A DNA stretch of 64,000 bases, from positions 203,234 to 267,233 of the forward strand of contig MQUF01000006.1 of the NCBI GenBank assembly GCA_001914235.1, written 5' to 3'. Numbering within the stretch: the first letter of the stretch is position 1; every line of letters begins with the position of its first letter. Under the pieces are notes generated by a model. It was given only the letters and a program-made list of their open reading frames with translations. It ran no database searches and was not told the DNA's origin. Positions 2,476 to 61,425 of the stretch are shown here, one piece after another. A program made the translations under genes and the position numbers. The DNA is from Desulfobulbaceae bacterium DB1 (GTDB lineage Bacteria > Desulfobacterota > Desulfobulbia > Desulfobulbales > SURF-16).

Positions 2476-3135
2476 ATGAAAAAAATGTTACTTTTGCTGC
2501 AGATGCTCCTTATTCTCTTTTTTTCCGTTGTCGGTCACTGCGATGACTTGACCCCGACTGCCGTTGCCACGAAGATTCAGGAAAAATACGAGAGGACAAA
2601 TGCTTTTAAAGCCGATTTTTTGCAAACATCAAATATAAGCGGCATGCAGCATCGCGAGCGGCAGGGCAGCGGCACAATGGCGATCCAGAAACCGGCTTTG
2701 CTTCGTTGGGATTATTCATCTCCGGACATCCAGGTGCTGGTAAGCGATGGAGAGAATTTCTCCCTTTATTTCGCCTCGGAAAAACAGATGATTGTCACCC
2801 CTGCCAAAGAGTATTTGCAGGAGGATGTGACCTATAGCTTCTTTTCCGGGACCGGCAACCTGCTGCGGGATTTTGACGTGACGGACGCACCCGGTTTTCT
2901 CGACCAGGAAGGCAGCCACGTGATCGCCCTCAAGCCGAAAAATCCGCATCCCCAGGTGGAGATCATGTATGTCTGGGTGGATAAGGACACTTTTCTCATC
3001 AACCATCTGCAGATTCAGGATCATCTGGGCAGTTTGACCGATCTTGTTTTTTTCAATCCGGTGGTTGATAAACCGTTTCCGGTCGAACATTTCCATTTTA
3101 CCCCCCCTGAAGGAACGGAAATAATCAGGCAATAG
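2476..3135 (+). CDS. lolA: LolA-like outer-membrane lipoprotein carrier protein
   Basis: Signal peptide MKKMLLLLQMLLILFFSVVG, and a LolA-like pattern (FKADF.Q...........G.......P..LRW.Y..P). ATG 2476 was chosen over the longer track start 2455. Confidence 0.7.
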   Translation: MKKMLLLLQMLLILFFSVVGHCDDLTPTAVATKIQEKYERTNAFKADFLQTSNISGMQHRERQGSGTMAIQKPALLRWDYSSPDIQVLVSDGENFSLYFASEKQMIVTPAKEYLQEDVTYSFFSGTGNLLRDFDVTDAPGFLDQEGSHVIALKPKNPHPQVEIMYVWVDKDTFLINHLQIQDHLGSLTDLVFFNPVVDKPFPVEHFHFTPPEGTEIIRQ

Positions 3136-3226: not shown

Positions 3227-5035
3227 ATGACACCATCATCTCCTTTCCATGTGGCGCTTGTCTCCATGCCGTGGGCCATTTTTAACCGGCCTTCCATCCA
3301 GCTCGGTACCCTGAAAAGTTATCTGGAGGGAAAAGCGGACGGTATCAAGGTGCGTTCGCTGCATCCGTATCTTGCAGTGGCAAAAGATCTCGGCAAGGAT
3401 CTTTATCACGCGATTTCCGCCAATGTCTGGGTCTGCGAGGCGCTTTACGCGGCACTTCTCTTTCCGGAACAGCGCGGTCGGGCCAAGGAGCTGGCGGAAA
3501 AAGAGTTTCAGTCCGACAACCGGACGCTTCCTTTTGATTTTGATGCTGTCTGTGCGCAACTGGACAAAAACCTGAAAATGTGGGCGGCAGGCGTTGACTG
3601 GCGGGACATTGATCTGGTCGGTTTTTCCGTTTGTTTCAATCAGCTCTTTGCCACTCTTGTTGCGGTTCGGGAATTGAAAGAAAGACGTCCCGGCCTGGTG
3701 ATCGTGCTTGGCGGCTCTTCCTGTCATGATGATGTTGCAGGCGCCCTTTTCCGCTCTTTTGATGTTGATTACATGATCAGCGGCGAAGGGGAGGAACCGT
3801 TTCTTTCGCTGTGCCGATATCTGGCCGGGCTGGACAAAAGGCTGCACGCGCGGGTGCATCATGCCGGTCCTCCTGCCCAACCTTCACCGGCGCCGGCGGA
3901 CGGGCAGGTCAATTTGACCGAACTTGCTGTTCCTGATTATGATGACTATTTTCGGGAAATGGAAAATTTGTTCAGCCGCAATACCTTCATCCCTGTTCTG
4001 CCGATTGAATTTTCCCGTGGATGCTGGTGGCGGCGATGTACTTTCTGCAATCTGAATCTGCAGTGGCGCGGCTATCGTTTCAAAAAGGCGGAAAAGATGG
4101 CACGCGAGGTGCTGTTGCTGGCCAACCGCTATAAAACCCTGGACTTTACCTTCACGGATAACGCGCTGCCGCTCAAGGATGCAGCCACCTTTTTTACGAC
4201 GATGGCGCGGTCCGCCCATGACTACCGTTTCTTTGCGGAAATTCGGGCGGATTATCGAGGGACGATGCTCGCCCAAAGCCGACAAGGCGGCCTTGCTGCC
4301 GTCCAGGTGGGGATTGAATCCTTCAGCAACTCGTTGCTGCAGAAATTTGCCAAAGGGGTCACGGTGATCGAAAATCTGGCGATCATGCGTGATGCGGCGG
4401 CCGGCGGCGTCGTGCTTGACGGCAATCTGATCGTTGAATTTCCGGGAAGCACCTCGGCCGAGGTCGAGGAGACACTGACGGTCCTTGATTTTGCTTTTCC
4501 TTTTCACCCCCTCTCCACCGCCTCTTTTTTCCTCGGCCACGGCAGTCCCGTGGATTGCCGGGCCAGGGATTACGGAATTTCGGCAAAAACGGTGCATCCC
4601 CATTTTGCGGCCATGCTGCCCGCGGAGATTGCCGCGGATTTCCCTTTTCTCATCAAGGGATACCGGGGGGATCGACAAAAACAGCGCAGGATGTGGCAGC
4701 CGGTGGTGGACAAGGTTCGCCGGTGGCGCGCCTTTCATGAAAAAAAAACAGGCGGCGGGAACCCTTTTCTTTCATATCGCGATGGTGGTGATTTTCTCAT
4801 TATCCGTCAGGTGCTGCCGGCAGGAGATGTTCTGCATCATCGGCTGCAAGGCCTGTCCCGCGAAATATATCGCGCCTGTAATGATATTATCGACCCGGCC
4901 TCCCTTGCCCGGATGTTTCCGTCATTGAGCGTGAAACAGATTGAGAACTTTTTAAATGACCTTGTCGCCAAGCGGCTCGTCTTCCGTGAAGGTGACAGAT
5001 TTCTCGCCCTGGCGGTCAGGGATGGGAAAAATTGA
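3227..5035 (+). CDS. B12-binding-domain radical SAM protein with a C-terminal winged-helix (RRE/PqqD-like) tail
   Basis: N-terminus VALVSMPWAIFNRPSIQLGTLKSYL, Cys cluster SRGCWWRRCTFCN, and C-terminus LQGLSREIYRACNDIIDPASLARMF..IENFLNDLVAKRLVF. Confidence 0.8.
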   Translation: MTPSSPFHVALVSMPWAIFNRPSIQLGTLKSYLEGKADGIKVRSLHPYLAVAKDLGKDLYHAISANVWVCEALYAALLFPEQRGRAKELAEKEFQSDNRTLPFDFDAVCAQLDKNLKMWAAGVDWRDIDLVGFSVCFNQLFATLVAVRELKERRPGLVIVLGGSSCHDDVAGALFRSFDVDYMISGEGEEPFLSLCRYLAGLDKRLHARVHHAGPPAQPSPAPADGQVNLTELAVPDYDDYFREMENLFSRNTFIPVLPIEFSRGCWWRRCTFCNLNLQWRGYRFKKAEKMAREVLLLANRYKTLDFTFTDNALPLKDAATFFTTMARSAHDYRFFAEIRADYRGTMLAQSRQGGLAAVQVGIESFSNSLLQKFAKGVTVIENLAIMRDAAAGGVVLDGNLIVEFPGSTSAEVEETLTVLDFAFPFHPLSTASFFLGHGSPVDCRARDYGISAKTVHPHFAAMLPAEIAADFPFLIKGYRGDRQKQRRMWQPVVDKVRRWRAFHEKKTGGGNPFLSYRDGGDFLIIRQVLPAGDVLHHRLQGLSREIYRACNDIIDPASLARMFPSLSVKQIENFLNDLVAKRLVFREGDRFLALAVRDGKN

Positions 5036-9357: not shown

Positions 9358-10128
9358 TTATTCCGACCCGGTTCTCTGTCGCACGATTTCGAACATGACA
9401 ACCCCGGCTGCAACGGAGGCGTTAAGGGAATCGAGATGCCGTTGCATGGGGATTGTGACCTTGAAGTCACACTGTTCGCCGATCAGAGGGCGAATGCCTT
9501 TTTCCTCGCCGCCGATCACCAGGCAGACGGCGCCGGAAAATGTGGTCTGATAAATCGAAGTTCCGCCATCCTTGACCGTTCCGTAAATCCACATCCCCAT
9601 TTCTTTCAGTTTCTGCAGCATACGGGCTACGTTGGTTACCTGGCAGACCGGCAGAGAGGCCGATGCGCCGGCGGATATTTTGGCCACCGTGCCGCTCAAC
9701 TGGGCGGAGCGATCCTTGGGGATGATCAGGCCGGTGACGCCCGCCGCGGAAGCGGAACGGATGATGGCGCCCAGATTGTGCGGGTCCTGGATGGAATCAA
9801 GGACCAGAACAAAGGGCGGAGCGTGCTGTTCCAGCAGGGCAAGGAAGGCGTCCTCGTCCAATGTTGCAAAAGGAGCGACCCTGGCGATGACGCCCTGGTG
9901 ATTCATCTGCTTGTTGCCGGTCATTCCGAAGTCAGCGGAAAAATTGACCTTGATTCCCGCATCACGGGCCAGATCGATGATTTCCCGGAGTTTTTGGCCG
10001 CTTTTCCCTTTCTGGATAATGATCTCATGAATCGAACCGGGTCGGCCGGCAAGCAGTTCATGGACGGGATGGATGCCCCAGACGAGATTGTCGTCGGTTT
10101 GGTCGTTTTTTGGTTTCATATCTTTCAC
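9358..10128 (-). CDS. rlmB: 23S rRNA (guanosine-2'-O)-methyltransferase, SpoU/TrmH family
   Basis: N-terminal LVWGIHPVHELL and SpoU motifs LDSIQDPHNLGAIIRSA, LVIGGEEKGIR and IPM....DSLNASVAAGV. Confidence 0.85.
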   Translation of the reverse strand: MKDMKPKNDQTDDNLVWGIHPVHELLAGRPGSIHEIIIQKGKSGQKLREIIDLARDAGIKVNFSADFGMTGNKQMNHQGVIARVAPFATLDEDAFLALLEQHAPPFVLVLDSIQDPHNLGAIIRSASAAGVTGLIIPKDRSAQLSGTVAKISAGASASLPVCQVTNVARMLQKLKEMGMWIYGTVKDGGTSIYQTTFSGAVCLVIGGEEKGIRPLIGEQCDFKVTIPMQRHLDSLNASVAAGVVMFEIVRQRTGSE

Positions 10129-13009: not shown

Positions 13010-13125
13010 TTTTAGTGCCTAAAATACTTCAAGTGCGTAACGTGCCGAAAATTAAAGGTGTTATCTGAGCAGAAAATACCGCCACTTCAAGTATTTTAGG
13101 CATTTTAAGTACTTTAGGCACTTTT
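13010..13125. repeat. MITE-like inverted repeat pair plus an extra half copy
   Basis: TTTTAGTGCCTAAAATACTTCAAGT (13010-13034) is inverted against CACTTCAAGTATTTTAGGCA (13083-13102). A related TTTTAAGTACTTTAGGCACTTTT follows (13103-13125). Confidence 0.6.
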
Positions 13126-26084: not shown

Positions 26085-29000
26085 TCACTGTCGCTTGCCG
26101 CCCCATTTACCGTTTTTCTTGGGGATCAGTTCCGCCTGTTTTTTCATGAAAAGGAGCCCCTTGTAGCCAAGCACGCTTTCCACCTCCCGGGCGAAATCCC
26201 CGCAGGGATTGATGGTGAGTTCTTCCGGGAGGTCGATGTCCGCCTCTCCCCGTTTGTTGAAATGAAGGGTCAGCGACACCGGGCAGGGGCCGTGGTGGCG
26301 GTGGATGGTTTTTTTCAGGTCTTCAAGTATCTTGCGGTTTACCCGATCGGAAATGAGCATGATTTTTGCCGCGGCGGTGAATTTTTTCAGGGCCTCGGAC
26401 AGTGTATCAATGGTGTCCGCCAGGATCTTTGCTCCGCCGCCTTCTTCCTCTTCCTTCTGCAGGACTCCCTGAATAACCAGGGGGGTATCGTCGACCAGCA
26501 CATGACCGAATTCGGCATAGGTCTGGGGGAAGACGATGACCTCAACCGAGCTGGACGTGTCTTCCAGGGTGATAAAGGACATGGGATCCCCTTTTTTGCT
26601 TTTCAGGTTTTTCCGGTTCTTGATCAGGCCGCCGATTCTGACCGCCGAACCGTCACTGCGCTGCATCAGGTCGGCGATCTCGGTATCAATAACCTGGCTG
26701 ATTTCTTTCCTGAAATCATCCAGCGGATGGCCGGTGATGTAAAAACCAACCGTTTCTTTTTCCGCGGCAAGCTTGTCTTTTTCATCCCATTCCGGGATGT
26801 CGGGAAAGGGGATATTGGTCGATTTTTCCTTGGCCTCGGTCGGCATGATGGAAAAAAGGGAAAGCTGTCCGCTTTCCTTGTCCCTCTGGGCGGCCTGGGC
26901 CTGTTCCATGGCCAGGTCAAGAACGGCGAAAAGCTGGGATCGTTTCGCGCCAAGGGAATCAAAGGCCCCTGCCTTGATCAGGCTCTCAATGACCCGGCGG
27001 TTGACCTTGCGGGAGTCGACCCTGGCGCAAAAGTCACCGAGGGATTTGAACGGCCCTTCCTTGCTCCGCTCTTCCATGATGGAATCAAGGGCCGCGCCGC
27101 CGACATTTTTTACCGCCGCAAGGCCGAAACGGATGCGGTCGTTGATGACGGTGAAATCCTGGTTGCTTTCATTGATGTCCGGCGGCAGGACATCGATTTC
27201 GTGTTCCTTGCACTCATTGATGTATTTGACCACCTTGTCGGTGTTGTTGACGTCGCAGGAAAGCAGCGCCGCCATGAACTGGGCCGGGTAATGGGCCTTG
27301 AGATACGCGGTCTGGTAGGAAATAAGGGCATAGGCGGCGCTGTGTGACTTGTTGAAGCCGTAGCCGGCGAACTTGGCCATCAGGTCGAAGATGTACTCGG
27401 CCTTGTCCAGGGGGACCTTGTTTTTCTCCGCCCCTTGCATGAACTTGCCCCGCTGTTCCTCCATCACCGCCGGGATCTTCTTACCCATGGCGCGGCGCAG
27501 GTTGTCTGCATCGCCCAGGGAGTAGGCGGCCAGGACATTGGCAATTTTCATTACCTGCTCCTGATAAACGATGACGCCATAGGTTTCTTTCAGGATCGGT
27601 TCCAGTTGGGGCAGGGGATAGGTGGCCACCATCTTGCCGTGCTTGGTGTTGACGAAGTCATCCACCATGCCGCTTTCGAGCGGTCCCGGCCGGTAGAGGG
27701 CAACCAGGGCGATGAGATCGGTGAACACCTCCGGCTTCATCTTCATCAGCAACTGGCGCATGCCTGAGCTTTCCAGCTGGAACACTCCCAGGGCATCGCC
27801 CTTGCAGAGCAGATCGTACGTTTTCGGATCATCCATGGGGATGGCGGCGATGTCAAGCGGTTCTTCCCGTTCCTCCTTGATCAGCTTCAGGGCGCGATTG
27901 ATAACAGTGAGCGTCTTCAGGCCGAGGAAGTCGAATTTGATGAGACCGGTCATCTCGGTGTACTTCATGTCGTACTGGGTGAGTACCTCGCCTTTCGGTC
28001 CCTTGCACACCGGCAGATATTCCACCATGGGCTCGGGCGAAATCACCACCCCGGCCGCATGGATGGAGGTGTGGCGCTGCAGACCCTCGAGCACCTTGGC
28101 GATGTCGATGAGTTGCCTGACCTGGTCATCGCGCTGATACAGGTCTTTTAAGCGCGGTTCCTGCTCCATTGCCTTTTTGATGGTCATTTTCAGCTCATCC
28201 GGCACCAGCTTGGCGATACGGTCGACATCGCCGAAAGGCATGGCCAGGGCCCGGCCCACATCGCGGATAACGCCCTTGGCCTTCATGGAACCATAGGTGA
28301 TGATCTGGGTGACATGGTCATCACCGCCATATTTTTCATGGACGTATTTGATGACCTCGCCGCGTCGTTCCTGGCAGAAATCAACATCAAAGTCCGGCAT
28401 GGATTTGCGTTCGACATTGAGAAAGCGTTCGAAGATGAGGCCATAAGGAATGGGGTCGATATCGGTGATGCGCATGCAGAAGGCCACCAGGCTGCCGGCG
28501 CCGGAGCCGCGCCCCGGTCCCACCGGGATATCATGGTTTTTGGCCCAGTTGATGAAGTCGGCCACGATGAGAAAATAGCCGGGAAATCCCATGGTCTTGA
28601 TGACGTCGATTTCCATGTCCAGCCGTTTGCGATAGGTTTTTTCAAGCTCCGCCCCGACCTCCTGCCTTTTTCGCAGTTCCCGCATCCTTTCCTTGAATCC
28701 CTGACGGGCGGTCTGGTCAAAGAGGGAATCAAGGGTTTCTCCTTCCGGTACCGGAAAGATGGGGAAATAATGGTTGCCGAAGGGGATTTCCAGATTGCAG
28801 CGGGCGGCCAGGGCCACGGTATTTTCGATGGCCTGCGGGCAATCGGCAAAGCGGCTCTTCATTTCCTGGGGGGATTTGAAAAAGAGTTCATCCGTGCTGA
28901 ACCTGAAGCGGCCGGCATCCATGATGGTCTTGCCCGTCTGGATGCAGAGCAGCAGCTCATGGGCCTTGTGTTCTTCCCGGTTGAGATAGTGGCAGTCATT

Positions 29001-29633
29001 GGTGGCGATCAGCGGGATGGAAAGCTCTCTGGAAAGCTGTTTCAGGCCGTTGTTGGCGATCCGTTGTTCCTCCATGCCGTTTTCCTGCAGCTCGAAATAG
29101 AGCCGGTCGCCGAAAATCGCGTAGAGCTCCCGGGCCTTTTCCCGGGCCAGATCGATATTTTTCTCAGTGGCAATCAGATAGGGAATTTCCCCGTGCAGGC
29201 AGGCGGTCATGGCAATGAGCCCTTCACTGTGGGCAATCATTGATTCTTTGTCGATGCGGGGTTTGTAATGGAAACCCTGGAGCTGGGCGATGGAGGCAAG
29301 TTTCAGCAGATTTTTGTAGCCGACGAGATCCATGGCAAGCAGCACGATGTGAAAGGCTGCCTTGCCCGCACTCTTCGCGCTTTTATCCCCGCGGGAACCA
29401 GGGGCGATGTAGAATTCGCAGCCGATGATCGGTTTGATGCCTGCCTTTCTCGCCTTGACGTAAAATTCCAGGGCACCGTACATGGAGCCGTGATCGGTGA
29501 TGGCCACCGTGTCCATGCCGAATTCCTTGCATTTGGCGAGCAGGTCGTCAAGCCGGATGGCGCCGTCCAGCAGGCTGTACTGGGTATGGACATGGAGGTG
29601 GACGAAGTTGGCGGGAATGGTTTCGCTGGTCAT
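26085..29633 (-). CDS. dnaE: DNA polymerase III alpha subunit
   Basis: PHP N-terminus FVHLHVHTQYSLLDGA with full-length collinear DnaE motifs. ATG 29633 (MTSETIPANF) is preferred. The track ORF extends to 29732 through a 9-nt repeat ladder. Confidence 0.95.
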   Translation of the reverse strand: MTSETIPANFVHLHVHTQYSLLDGAIRLDDLLAKCKEFGMDTVAITDHGSMYGALEFYVKARKAGIKPIIGCEFYIAPGSRGDKSAKSAGKAAFHIVLLAMDLVGYKNLLKLASIAQLQGFHYKPRIDKESMIAHSEGLIAMTACLHGEIPYLIATEKNIDLAREKARELYAIFGDRLYFELQENGMEEQRIANNGLKQLSRELSIPLIATNDCHYLNREEHKAHELLLCIQTGKTIMDAGRFRFSTDELFFKSPQEMKSRFADCPQAIENTVALAARCNLEIPFGNHYFPIFPVPEGETLDSLFDQTARQGFKERMRELRKRQEVGAELEKTYRKRLDMEIDVIKTMGFPGYFLIVADFINWAKNHDIPVGPGRGSGAGSLVAFCMRITDIDPIPYGLIFERFLNVERKSMPDFDVDFCQERRGEVIKYVHEKYGGDDHVTQIITYGSMKAKGVIRDVGRALAMPFGDVDRIAKLVPDELKMTIKKAMEQEPRLKDLYQRDDQVRQLIDIAKVLEGLQRHTSIHAAGVVISPEPMVEYLPVCKGPKGEVLTQYDMKYTEMTGLIKFDFLGLKTLTVINRALKLIKEEREEPLDIAAIPMDDPKTYDLLCKGDALGVFQLESSGMRQLLMKMKPEVFTDLIALVALYRPGPLESGMVDDFVNTKHGKMVATYPLPQLEPILKETYGVIVYQEQVMKIANVLAAYSLGDADNLRRAMGKKIPAVMEEQRGKFMQGAEKNKVPLDKAEYIFDLMAKFAGYGFNKSHSAAYALISYQTAYLKAHYPAQFMAALLSCDVNNTDKVVKYINECKEHEIDVLPPDINESNQDFTVINDRIRFGLAAVKNVGGAALDSIMEERSKEGPFKSLGDFCARVDSRKVNRRVIESLIKAGAFDSLGAKRSQLFAVLDLAMEQAQAAQRDKESGQLSLFSIMPTEAKEKSTNIPFPDIPEWDEKDKLAAEKETVGFYITGHPLDDFRKEISQVIDTEIADLMQRSDGSAVRIGGLIKNRKNLKSKKGDPMSFITLEDTSSSVEVIVFPQTYAEFGHVLVDDTPLVIQGVLQKEEEEGGGAKILADTIDTLSEALKKFTAAAKIMLISDRVNRKILEDLKKTIHRHHGPCPVSLTLHFNKRGEADIDLPEELTINPCGDFAREVESVLGYKGLLFMKKQAELIPKKNGKWGGKRQ

Positions 29634-29840
29634 ATCGGTCTCATTGGTCTTGTTGGTCATTGTGGTCTGACTGGTCTGACTGGTCTGACTGGTCATACTG
29701 GTCATACTGGTCATACTGGTCATACTGGTCATACTGGTCTTACTGGTCTTACTGGTCTAATTGGTCTTATTGGTCTGAGTGGTCTGAGTGGTCTGAGTGG
29801 TCTGATTGGTCAGACTGATGAGACAAGTCAGACCAATCTC
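29625..29840. repeat. Tandem array of ~21-24 nonamers (NNTGGTCNN) ending in an 11/12-bp inverted repeat
   Basis: Units were read directly: ACTGGTCAT x5 (29688-29732), ACTGGTCTG x2, ACTGGTCTT x2, AGTGGTCTG x3, ATTGGTCTT/G and others. The inverted repeat is GATTGGTCAGAC (29804-29815) / GTCAGACCAATC (29827-29838). Confidence 0.9.
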
Positions 29841-30610
29841 TCCAATGCCGCAAAACTTTCTTCAACCCCGTTTTCATGGTGCGGTTCCATGGTGAGAATG
29901 GGAGAAAGTCCTCGTTGGTTGAGATAGGTGAATAATCCGTTGAAGTCAAATATGCCTTGCCCGATGGCCAGATGCGCGTCATGATCTCCATGGTTGTCAT
30001 GGAGATGGAGTTGGCCGAGCCACGGCTCAAGTTCCGGCAACCAGTCCTGCCAGCGGTTTTCGGCAAAGGCAAGCACATGCCCGACGTCGAGGCAGAAACG
30101 GGCTCGCGGTGAATCAAGGGCCTGGAGCATTTTCTTGTGCTGAGCCGGATTTGTTTCATAGGTGTTTTCCAGCATGAGCGGCGTGTCATGTTCCGTTGCC
30201 AGGGCGAGAAGTTCGCGCCACCCCTCAAGGGAATAGCGGAACCACTCTTTTTCCTTGTACCCGTGCTTGTTTTTTTCAAAGCCGAGATGGCAGACAATGG
30301 ATCGGGGTTGAAATACCGGGATCAGGTCAAATGTCCTGCGGATCTTGTCGCGGCTGACTTTGCGGATATACGGGTCGAGAGCACCGACGGACAGTTCAAA
30401 AAAAGGCGCGTGCAGGGTGCATCCAAGGTTGTGGGCGGCAAGCTGCCGTGCAACCTGGATAAAATCTTCCTTGTTCCCGTTGTATAAAACGTCGCCTTCA
30501 AGTCCGATTTCCGGTTGCAATCCCTCGGAAAGAAACCGATCAAGGTTTGCCTTGAGATAGGCGAAGGGGGCATTGACAAAGCAACGCGATTTGAGATGCG
30601 GCAGCGACAT
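29828..30610 (-). CDS. Xylose-isomerase-like TIM-barrel protein (sugar phosphate isomerase/epimerase / AP-endonuclease-2 superfamily)
   Basis: Motifs LHAPF, IVCHLG, LMLENT and LDVGH...LHLHDN.G..DAHL. Confidence 0.7.
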   Translation of the reverse strand: MSLPHLKSRCFVNAPFAYLKANLDRFLSEGLQPEIGLEGDVLYNGNKEDFIQVARQLAAHNLGCTLHAPFFELSVGALDPYIRKVSRDKIRRTFDLIPVFQPRSIVCHLGFEKNKHGYKEKEWFRYSLEGWRELLALATEHDTPLMLENTYETNPAQHKKMLQALDSPRARFCLDVGHVLAFAENRWQDWLPELEPWLGQLHLHDNHGDHDAHLAIGQGIFDFNGLFTYLNQRGLSPILTMEPHHENGVEESFAALERLV

Positions 30611-50298: not shown

Positions 50299-50597
50299 GT
50301 TTTTACTCCTTTCTGTTTTTGGTGAATTTAACAGATTGGAGCAACATTTTCACTTAACAGCCTGTCCAAATTTTCCAGACCGCCTATATGGAGCCATTTC
50401 AAGATCGCCTTAATGGCGCCACCTGGTGATCGAGTTAATGGAGCCAGCGCATGTGTTGGTTGCTTTGAGTTGTAAGTGGTTTTTGTGTTTAATTGCAATC
50501 ATGATCTCCTACCCGCCCTACACTAATTTTTCAATGGGCAGGTGTCTCACTTACATTGACACAGAGGGTTACGAGAAAATTCTACTTTTTAACACCT

Positions 50598-60450: not shown

Positions 60451-61338
60451 TCAACCAGTCACTCCCATCGGTCCAAAAACAAAATCGTTGAGCAATCTTT
60501 CCAGCCTCTGCCTGGTTTTGTGCAGGTTGTTGTAATGCCGGAATTTCGACAATTTCCCGGCATGGTTGAAGCGGGGCTGGCTCGGATCGATTTCCCAGGG
60601 ATGGAGATAAAAAACAAAGGGCTTGCGCTCGTCGCTATTAATTTTTTTCAGGGCCATTTTCGTAAACCAGTAAGGGAACAGGCGGAAATAGCCGCCGCCG
60701 GCCACAGGAATTTTTCTTCCCAGGAAAAGCGACGTGGAAATAGGATATTCCATCATGTCATGGTTTGGCAATTTATATTCGAAACGGGGGGCGTCCGGAA
60801 TACCGTAGTTGTCATGATAAATGGGAAAGATGCTTGAATCGTATTTGAAGCCGAGTTCCTCCAGAATATCCAAGGCCCAAAGCGATTTTTTTGTTATCGA
60901 ATAACTGGGGGCGCGGTAGCCGACGACCGCCTTGCCTGTTATTTCTTCAAGAATATCCTTGGCCCGCCGGGTGTCTTCCCTGAATTCAGCGGGCGAAAGA
61001 TCATAAATTTTTCTGTGCAGATAGCTGTGGCAGCCTATTTCGTGCCCATGCCGGACAATTTCTTTTACCAGCGCCGGACAGCGTTCGGCAATCCAGCCGA
61101 CAATAAAAAATGTGGCTTTGACATTATGGGCAGCCAGCAGATTTAAAATATTCCCGGTGTTGTTTTCCACCCGCAAATCGCACCCTCCCCATTCTCGGGG
61201 AGAAATTACTTTTTCGAATGCCGCAACCTGAAAATAGTCTTCAACATCAATGGTGAGGTAGTTGGTTGGCTGGTTCAATTTGTTGTTTGGTCTAATTGGT
61301 CTGATTGGTCGGGTTGGTTGGATTGGTTTTCTCCGCAT
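60451..61338 (-). CDS. Polysaccharide deacetylase of the exosortase-locus (DUF3473-containing) type
   Basis: Motifs LTIDVEDYFQV, ATFFIVGW, GCHSYLH, DSSIFP and GGGYFRLFPY. ATG 61338 is the first Met. The N-terminal PIQPTRPIRPIRPNNKLNQPTN is encoded by the nonamer repeat. Confidence 0.85.
   Translation of the reverse strand: MRRKPIQPTRPIRPIRPNNKLNQPTNYLTIDVEDYFQVAAFEKVISPREWGGCDLRVENNTGNILNLLAAHNVKATFFIVGWIAERCPALVKEIVRHGHEIGCHSYLHRKIYDLSPAEFREDTRRAKDILEEITGKAVVGYRAPSYSITKKSLWALDILEELGFKYDSSIFPIYHDNYGIPDAPRFEYKLPNHDMMEYPISTSLFLGRKIPVAGGGYFRLFPYWFTKMALKKINSDERKPFVFYLHPWEIDPSQPRFNHAGKLSKFRHYNNLHKTRQRLERLLNDFVFGPMGVTG
61261..61332. repeat. Second nonamer tandem array (8 units, TTGGTCNNN register)
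   Basis: TTGGTCTAA (61288-61296), TTGGTCTGA, TTGGTCGGG, TTGGTTGGA and TTGGTTTTC, plus degenerate upstream units. Two units are identical or near-identical to units at 29760-29777. Confidence 0.8.
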
Positions 61339-61425
61339 TCCGAAATCCCAAATCCCAAATCCGCTATTGCATGACATCGAACATAACCACACCCTGCGGT
61401 CTCCGATGCCGTATTTGCCTCTTTC

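Follow-up and report, generated by a model that had tools for sequence, protein, structure and literature searches.

A hypervariable array of GACCA nonamers in front of dnaE in Desulfobulbaceae bacterium DB1 belongs to a dispersed repeat family that prefers the sense side of start codons

In the metagenome-assembled genome of Desulfobulbaceae bacterium DB1, a hypervariable tandem array of 9-nt units with a constrained GACCA core fills the gap before dnaE, the gene for DNA polymerase III alpha. Other arrays of its family are dispersed and show a bias towards the sense side of start codons. The dnaE array is located in a stretch of 64,000 nucleotides (NCBI GenBank assembly GCA_001914235.1, contig MQUF01000006.1, positions 203,234 to 267,233 of the forward strand), which was analysed as a whole and is called the window below. 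Positions given without a locus name refer to this window, and the features under discussion are collected in Table 1. Attention to the place was drawn by an earlier, model-made reading of the letters and of the list of open reading frames (ORFs), hereafter the original prediction, which described tandem nonamers and a ladder of ATG codons upstream of dnaE.

The about 21 clean 9-nt units described in this gap are really there. Tandem Repeats Finder (TRF) reports a repeat at 29626-29811 with a period of 9, 20.7 copies and 87% matches, and if the region is cut in register on the dnaE strand, 22 consecutive units can be counted from 29811 down to 29614, with the exact GACCA core in 20 of them. 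Two non-exact cores, GACCG and AACCA, are placed at the dnaE end of the array. On the sense strand the unit may be represented as (GACCAGUAU)n, and the blocks of identical units are present as described. The pattern TGGTC-N4-TGGTC-N4-TGGTC has 21 matches in the window versus 0.02 expected from shuffled sequences. Gross mis-assembly of the array is unlikely, because identical units in DB1 follow each other over no more than 45 nt and because such arrays recur in many independent assemblies. The array occupies the entire 194-nt gap between dnaE and the upstream gene for an AP_endonuc_2 TIM-barrel protein, and its final units, GACCGATAT, GACCAGCGA and AACCATTCC, continue into the DnaE coding sequence. 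Thus, the statement that it ends at the conserved DnaE N-terminus has to be corrected: the likely start codon and roughly the first six codons lie within the array.

The genes for Trm112p, the AP_endonuc_2 TIM-barrel protein and DnaE have the same orientation and are tightly packed, and relatives share this order. All four species with 86-94% DnaE identity have a GACCA-nonamer array that agrees with that of DB1 in place, orientation and frame, and the number of units across the five species is about 22 (DB1), 7, 7, 7-9 and 17. Two more dnaE loci from metagenomes have 20 and 13 units. Within protein clusters of 90% identity the residues preceding FVHLH span everything from MTNQTN to a 43-residue ladder, and the tail varies from 6 to 43 residues even among DnaE proteins that are at least 94.7% identical. 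ATG ladders arise repeatedly in other strains, for instance as MTSMTSMTS or MTNMTNMTN. In DnaE proteins with 99.5% and 99.1% identity over the 1170-residue core both the number and the composition of units differ up to FVHLH, and therefore the array evolves far faster than the gene. The supposed proneness to slippage is borne out by these data, and the strain comparison that had been proposed as its check speaks against an invariant copy number: about 7 to 22 units are present in the orthologous arrays examined, and the tails differ at 99.1-99.5% identity. L001, the only other contig encoding an identical TIM-barrel protein, was rejected as independent evidence on copy number, being 100% identical to DB1 over 20.8 kb. 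Orthologs with 85% and 82% identity keep the gene order and have no array; an AT-rich spacer is followed there by ATG-ACT-GAA-CAA-ACC. Judging by this distribution, the array is a lineage-specific acquisition in one Desulfobulbaceae subclade, where it persists with fluctuating size. One of the orthologous loci (L004) has two further features upstream of its dnaE array, namely a TGGCTGA heptamer array at 144-189 (6.6 copies) and a long GC-rich inverted repeat at ~200-300.

Variability of the units is distributed unevenly along their length. In 60 units from five species, positions 1-5 hold 1.8-2.0 bits of information and positions 6-9 only 0.3-1.1 bits. The same profile was obtained for the 27 distinct units, a set from which recent duplications are removed (1.5-2.0 bits at positions 1-5 and 0.1-0.9 bits at positions 6-9). 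In the frame of dnaE, which reads xxG-ACC-ANT, invariant positions 1 and 4 of the unit fall on the third base of a codon and free positions 6, 8 and 9 on the first or second base, the opposite of what protein-level selection produces. The GACCA core is under nucleotide-level constraint. Neither a concentration of variation at synonymous (third) codon positions nor adherence to a single frame, both usual for protein-coding repeats, was found, and the second array of the window (see below) is in another frame.

These data bear directly on the idea that DnaE receives from the array a functional N-terminal extension, variable and rich in T/S/N/Q, produced from alternative in-frame starts. The dnaE frame is open from 29756, a 9-nt unit preserves it at any copy number, seven ATG codons stand in it, and one gene caller annotates the longer, 1215-aa form of the protein. 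However, conservation runs opposite to what coding selection would leave, other genes are preceded by the same units in different frames or outside the translated part, and the tail, so changeable among nearly identical proteins, is absent at 82-85% identity. An extension with its own function is, hence, highly improbable.

The ladder of five in-frame ATG codons spaced by 9 nt does exist. Its ATGs are at 29732, 29723, 29714, 29705 and 29696, and in the longest ORF (26085-29732) they are translated as MTSMTSMTSMTSMTS. The open frame, however, contains seven ATGs rather than five, the two additional ones being at 29660 and 29633, and the frame translation confirmed the in-frame TAG (29759-29757) that closes it upstream. 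The annotated N-terminus of the closest ortholog (P0002, 94% identical), MTSETIPANF, matches the ATG at 29633. This proximal ATG stands in the arrangement TGA-GACC-xxx-ATG, i.e. GAG-N6-ATG, in four of the five species, while the ladder ATGs lack even this weak element and have no Shine-Dalgarno (SD)-like element upstream. All array-internal units that end in T end in AT, giving ATG with the next G. Most likely, going by these signals, translation of DnaE starts at ATG 29633. The start codon itself lies inside the array, so that copying of the start-codon unit would yield the ladder, which is probably a by-product consisting of its duplicated copies. Since the AT-ending units fit such copying and GAG-N6 is missing from the ladder, its codons are probably not a set of functional starts, and the emphasis of the original prediction on the ladder is not supported. 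Existing annotations of the DnaE start disagree by 38 codons: the NCBI protein of 1177 aa begins with 'MPANF' at a non-ATG codon, and the JGI protein of 1215 aa begins at the distal ladder ATG. GAG-N6-ATG is the only element of this type that dnaE has, whereas neighbouring DB1 genes possess SDs of AGAGGA- or AAGGGG-type.

Arrays of the same kind were searched for in genomes and metagenomes. The genome scan covered one genome per species, and its figures given here are those among the matches listed. Many of these matches are ordinary homogeneous coding repeats. The subset with the anatomy of DB1, that is with an invariant core and heterogeneous spacers, has two flavours: GACCAGAYA was found in Nitrospira (including N. 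moscoviensis), WOR-3, Omnitrophota and several deltaproteobacterial metagenome-assembled genomes (MAGs), and GACCA[AG]T[CA]A in an Anaerolineales MAG as well as in Thermodesulfobacteriota and other 'Deltaproteobacteria'. Arrays of the family reach up to about 20-35 units, and some loci contain up to five arrays within 8 kb. In the loci that were read closely a co-oriented gene follows the forward array, which overlaps its start codon or stops 0-40 nt short of it, and in the genome scan start codons are located from -21 to +50 nt relative to the array end. Many arrays run directly into ATG, leaving no room for an SD, and a 4-nt SD match accompanies about one third of array-adjacent ATGs in the genome scan. 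The downstream genes belong to unrelated Pfam families. For DUF445, RemA-like, DegT, NusG-like (twice) and 23S_rRNA_IVP (twice) the domain model sets in only a few residues away from the array-proximal start; a deacetylase is a further case. Genes of the metagenome sample, again diverse housekeeping ones, include dnaE, DUF445 and RemA-like, together with look-alikes, recognised by N-terminal sequence only, of ybaB, argH, glgC, tlyA, ubiE/menG, an E2 acyltransferase, an enoyl-CoA hydratase and a Sir2-type gene.

Orientation of the arrays was estimated by whether an open frame of 80 or more codons starts inside the array or immediately behind it. For heterogeneous arrays of the genome scan such an ORF 5' end was found on the sense side in 22 cases out of 39 and on the mirrored side in 9 (17 sense-only versus 4 mirror-only). 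For arrays with the DB1-type unit in the metagenome scan the corresponding values are 38 and 15 of 59 (27 sense-only versus 4 mirror-only). The two samples are independent of each other, and after pooling at least 44 sense-only arrays stand against 8 mirror-only ones (binomial p=4e-7). Core/spacer architecture, position at start codons and orientation bias were all outside the search criteria. Thus, the arrays gather at the 5' ends of genes and favour one orientation there, and the random scatter that had been set as the opposite expectation is contradicted. Avoidance of stop codons was tried and rejected as the cause of orientation: the antisense strand of the array has two fully open frames, and the three sense frames contain 4, 1 and 7 stops. 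Spread by phages was rejected as well, since viral contigs rarely carry such arrays (only 13 and 6 match). The remark that a slippage-prone array in front of an essential replicase gene is unusual holds, therefore, only for its first part: the array is slippage-prone, but many unrelated genes are preceded by its relatives, and dnaE orthologs with 82-85% identity have none.

The window itself contains a second array of the family, composed of five units (Table 1). Relative to its gene it has the sense orientation seen at dnaE, it is read in another frame, and it stops 5 nt before the TTG at 61278-61276 of an XrtA-type polysaccharide deacetylase gene (Pfam Polysacc_deac_1 and DUF3473). Most deacetylase homologs start 2-8 residues before NYLTIDVED, and the comparison suggests this TTG as the true start. 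The array is sporadic among the homologs. It is adjoined by a heptamer run, (TTTGGGA)x3, at 61339-61362, and the gene models starting at ATG 61377 or GTG 61392 run through both repeats. In one of the homologs (P0179) the tail, SHQPSAISHHPSAMSQQPT, looks like a translated short repeat of another, probably heptamer, type.

At the far end of the dnaE array the 11/12-bp inverted repeat that had been noticed at 29804-29815 and 29827-29838 is present, with the stop codon of the upstream gene (TGA, 29830-29828) inside it. The hairpin that can be formed at this boundary from the upstream stop and the first forward unit is modest (-18.8 kcal/mol, z=-2.0). In other members of the family an inverted arm is often found directly upstream of the forward array; it is shorter, has the same period of 9 (TGGTC, TAGTC, TCGTC) and starts at the stop codon of the upstream gene. 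DB1 represents the asymmetric extreme with ~1.3 inverted versus 22 forward units, and much longer inverted arms are present at the equivalent position in loci L005, L021, L043 and L098. Three or more inverted units upstream were registered in only ~1/5 of the metagenome-sample arrays. In 10 of 14 elements with left arms the fold-back is far stabler than shuffled controls (z=-4 to -7). The sense RNA of the 192-nt DB1 array proper is unstructured (-16.9 kcal/mol, z=+1.1, open centroid), with a composition of 38% A, 30% C, 18% G and 14% T, while the antisense strand would fold much better (-60 kcal/mol). A similar junction of arms, TAGTCAAAG(N2)AACAGACCA, was observed in L005 (~9880-9900), L021 (~4560-4580, minus orientation) and L098 (~3045-3070), and this sequence likeness hints at common descent or at a defined fold-back centre in the DB1-type family. 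Small genes of the 23S_rRNA_IVP type (four-helix-bundle, Avd-like) are bracketed on both sides by GACCA arrays in a cassette-like manner in three phyla (Table 1), and in L058 and L083 a gene of this type is flanked by other short repeats.

Such structures raise the question whether the fold-back hairpin is the essential part of the element, serving as an intercistronic signal for processing, stabilisation or termination, or representing a remnant of a small mobile element that inserts beside start codons. The high stability of most fold-backs, the left arm beginning at or right after the upstream stop codon, the shared junction and the bracketed 23S_rRNA_IVP genes would all be natural for it. 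In DB1, however, the left arm of ~1.3 units gives only a marginal hairpin and ~190 nt of the forward array stay unpaired; most arrays of the metagenome sample lack three inverted units, and no U-tract terminator was found. Transposase, target duplication or defined ends were not evident in the loci read, though no search was aimed at these, and the rarity of arrays in viral contigs adds to the doubt. Taken together, these observations render a hairpin signal or a mobile-element remnant rather improbable.

The same low probability can be given to the assumption that the array works at the level of DNA, where a regulator, a nucleoid protein or a partition-type ribbon-helix-helix protein would bind TGGTC/GACCA units of both orientations, direct and inverted, cooperatively and control transcription of the downstream gene. 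An invariant short core with a free spacer resembles a recognition element, direct and inverted arms around a centre look like those of operator- or centromere-like arrays, and a fold-back that favours neither RNA strand agrees with it. On the other hand, the arrays fill co-oriented gaps and reach up to or into the start codon, so that no promoter to be regulated can be recognised, the period of 9 bp sets successive sites on different helix faces, a strong gene-relative orientation bias is not required for a symmetric operator, and no candidate binding protein is linked to the arrays.

Based on these data we tentatively favour the possibility that the array is transcribed and acts as an A/C-rich translation leader or as a platform for an RNA-binding factor reading GACCA, at somewhat less than even odds. 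We infer it because the array fills a gap between co-oriented genes, is free of promoter signals, is unstructured on the sense strand and, in the family, often seems to displace the SD region. Scanning for sigma70 promoter hexamers and for an intrinsic terminator (hairpin followed by a U-tract) revealed neither of them in or beside the array. Rfam 15 gave no match in the window at the gathering threshold, a permissive Rfam search returned only chance-level miRNA and S-element matches (14-18 bits versus gathering thresholds of 47-95), and no tRNA or tmRNA genes were found in the window. In the proposed scheme, units would be gained and lost by replication slippage or unequal recombination, as the pattern of their variation implies. 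The array would be transcribed within the trm112 / TIM-barrel / dnaE message, giving a ~190-nt unstructured, A/C-rich and SD-poor leader, on which ribosomes, or a sequence-specific RNA-binding factor reading the repeated GACCA, would be loaded before starting at ATG 29633. The number of copies could then tune expression, and variable N-terminal T/S/N/Q tails on DnaE would be a tolerated by-product. A Rho rut-like site is also conceivable, because C prevails over G on the sense strand and the RNA is unstructured. In a more general version the arrays would form a hitherto undescribed cross-phylum class of cis-acting 5' leaders, often with unequal fold-backs, whose GACCA core is read by a conserved RNA-binding or single-strand-binding factor or by a component of the ribosome. 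They would stand in for SD-led initiation at housekeeping genes including the replicase, and rapid shifts in copy number would provide heritable graded expression within populations. This version seems unlikely.

Several circumstances weigh against the array being a leader. No convincing complementarity to 16S rRNA was seen, by eye only, and neither a binding partner nor a linked candidate gene was found in the loci. The scans were selected for GACCA, so that sharing of the core across phyla is partly ascertainment; start calls behind the orientation counts were crude, and copy numbers derive from short-read assemblies. Fold-back energies of sense and antisense strands gave no consistent preference, and therefore RNA-level selection on the hairpin is not demonstrated; this would be expected if the structure matters only in DNA or is irrelevant. 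Finally, TRF applied to all fetched loci revealed, in the loci with arrays, many further tandem repeats of 7-8 nt built from unrelated units (L027, L028, L041, L049, L080, L083, L093 and L125), several of them heptamers, and since these genomes are so rich in 7-8-nt repeats, a general tendency to make repeats could explain much of the pattern without any function. The TGGGTAAT/ATTACCCA repeat is even common to two unrelated loci, L027 and L125. The supposition that GACCA arrays are the sole repeat family in these genomes was therefore rejected in view of the many others at the same loci: GACCA nonamers are one family among several in repeat-rich genomes.

The most serious competitor is a neutral or selfish simple-sequence repeat, with 7-9-nt units readily expanded by replication and repair and retained at dnaE as the start codon and ribosome-binding region became embedded in it. 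Besides the abundance of other 7-8-nt families at the same loci and the heptamer run beside the second DB1 array, extreme turnover between near-identical strains is in line with this opinion, as are dnaE functioning without an array in the orthologs with 82-85% identity and the sporadic occurrence of the deacetylase array. It leaves unexplained, however, why five positions are fixed and four are variable even among distinct units, and why the bias in orientation and towards start codons was replicated, given that avoidance of stops cannot account for the orientation. Insertions, moreover, should be least tolerated just at promoters and ribosome-binding sites. We consider such a repeat, devoid of function, somewhat unlikely.

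Among published systems the closest case is TAACTGA (MacGregor 2015, PMC4679880), a heptamer that is directly repeated before start codons of marine Beggiatoaceae, Cyanobacteria and Bacteroidetes. Genes with TAACTGA repeats mostly have no Shine-Dalgarno sequence; translational regulation was proposed for them, and the function is unproven (PMC4679880). Like these repeats, GACCA arrays have forward orientation at start codons, precede unrelated genes including essential ones and are patchy across distant phyla (PMC4679880). They differ in their unit, which is 9 nt long and joins a fixed 5-nt core to a free 4-nt spacer where the TAACTGA heptamer is fixed throughout, in their length (up to about 20-35 units, compared with mostly 2-6 in BOGUAY, PMC4679880), in the frequent inverted left arm, and in their hosts, which are Thermodesulfobacteriota, Nitrospira, WOR-3, Omnitrophota and Anaerolineales. 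Long simple sequence repeats (LSSR), as summarised in PMC4679880 from Mrazek et al. 2007, have 5-11-nt units, exceed the length expected by chance, are sporadic among lineages and are attributed to polymerase slippage; units in multiples of 3 are tolerated in coding sequence. The dnaE array, a run of head-to-tail 9-nt repeats beyond chance length whose copy number shifts between related genomes, agrees with this description. A conserved core with a variable spacer, position at start codons, orientation bias and a fold-back arm are, however, not predicted by what that summary says of LSSR with their near-identical units. In the 5' untranslated region of Moraxella catarrhalis uspA2, cited in PMC4679880 as an example of phase variation by simple sequence repeats, the number of AGAT units between promoter and start codon also varies between strains and there can tune expression. 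Such variation concerns surface or virulence genes of host-adapted pathogens, in contrast to the housekeeping genes of environmental bacteria considered here. On/off switching does not fit the dnaE array, as a 9-nt unit keeps the frame and no promoter hexamers lie in or beside it.

No published description of the GACCA nonamer family was found in the searchable literature or in Rfam. Other known repeats are similar in certain aspects only. Cyanobacterial STRR are dispersed intergenic families of short tandem repeats, several per genome, with unknown function; they differ from GACCA nonamers in being heptamers of heterocystous cyanobacteria, and we know of no core/spacer architecture or start-codon abutment in them. 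The heptads of omega repressor, the ParR/parC arrays (ribbon-helix-helix) and MetJ metboxes are composed of contiguous direct or inverted short units in variable number. These arrays occupy promoter regions of specific operons, mostly on plasmids, whereas GACCA arrays are chromosomal, precede many genes and have no linked binding protein. REP and BIME are intergenic hairpin-forming palindromes, often situated between co-oriented genes of an operon, with a REP unit of ~20-40 nt; unlike REP, each arm of a GACCA element is a tandem nonamer array, one arm is longer than the other, and in many members the left arm is missing.

If the arrays are leaders, they would be the second independent example, after TAACTGA, of short repeats taking over the ribosome-binding region of essential genes, and would point to a general, uncharacterised mode of Shine-Dalgarno-independent initiation in environmental bacteria. 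Populations could in this case vary the dosage of core genes such as dnaE by repeat slippage. Annotation is affected in practice: gene callers that disagree about the DnaE start and read through arrays elsewhere imply that N-termini are systematically mis-annotated in these lineages. Nitrospira moscoviensis, a cultured organism with a complete genome, carries arrays of the family, which makes the question experimentally approachable.

Table 1. Features of the GACCA-nonamer arrays and their surroundings
Feature	Sequence	Position	Strand	Details
dnaE (DNA polymerase III alpha), from the proximal ATG	window	26085..29633	-	homolog domains PHP, DNA_pol3_alpha, finger, HHH_6, OB
Forward (right-arm) GACCA-nonamer array	window	29614..29811	-	22 in-register units, GACCA core and variable 4-nt spacer
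Most likely dnaE start codon (MTSETIPANFVHLH...)	window	29631..29633	-	GAG at 29642-29640, GAG-N6-ATG
Five-ATG ladder, five GACCAGTAT units, each followed by G	window	29694..29732	-	ORF translation MTSMTSMTSMTSMTS
In-frame TAG, unit GACCAATTA followed by G	window	29757..29759	-	closes the dnaE frame upstream
Short inverted left arm and loop	window	29804..29838	-	11/12 inverted repeat 29827-29838 / 29804-29815
Upstream co-oriented AP_endonuc_2 TIM-barrel gene, 260 aa	window	29828..30610	-	TGA stop 29830-29828 inside the left arm
Second array, 5 units: AACCAATCC AACCAACCC GACCAATCA GACCAATTA GACCAAACA	window	61284..61328	-	same GACCA family
Bracketed 23S_rRNA_IVP gene	L028	~1732-2277	minus orientation	
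Bracketed 23S_rRNA_IVP gene	L029	6700-7179		
Bracketed 23S_rRNA_IVP gene	L079	~3954-4465	minus orientation	

A few minor observations concern the letters of the array and the rest of the window. An antisense ORF of 219 aa (29268-29927, plus strand) passes across the dnaE array and encodes collagen-like G-x-T triplets (GLTGLTGHTGHTG...); it is a mechanical consequence of the repeat and no gene. The EcoP1 site is AGACC, and many array units read TGACC. Other short tandem repeats of the window are located at 13083-13124, with 2.3 copies of an 18-nt unit (CACTTTAAGTACTTTAGG), and at 50372-50421, with 2.0 copies of a 25-nt unit.

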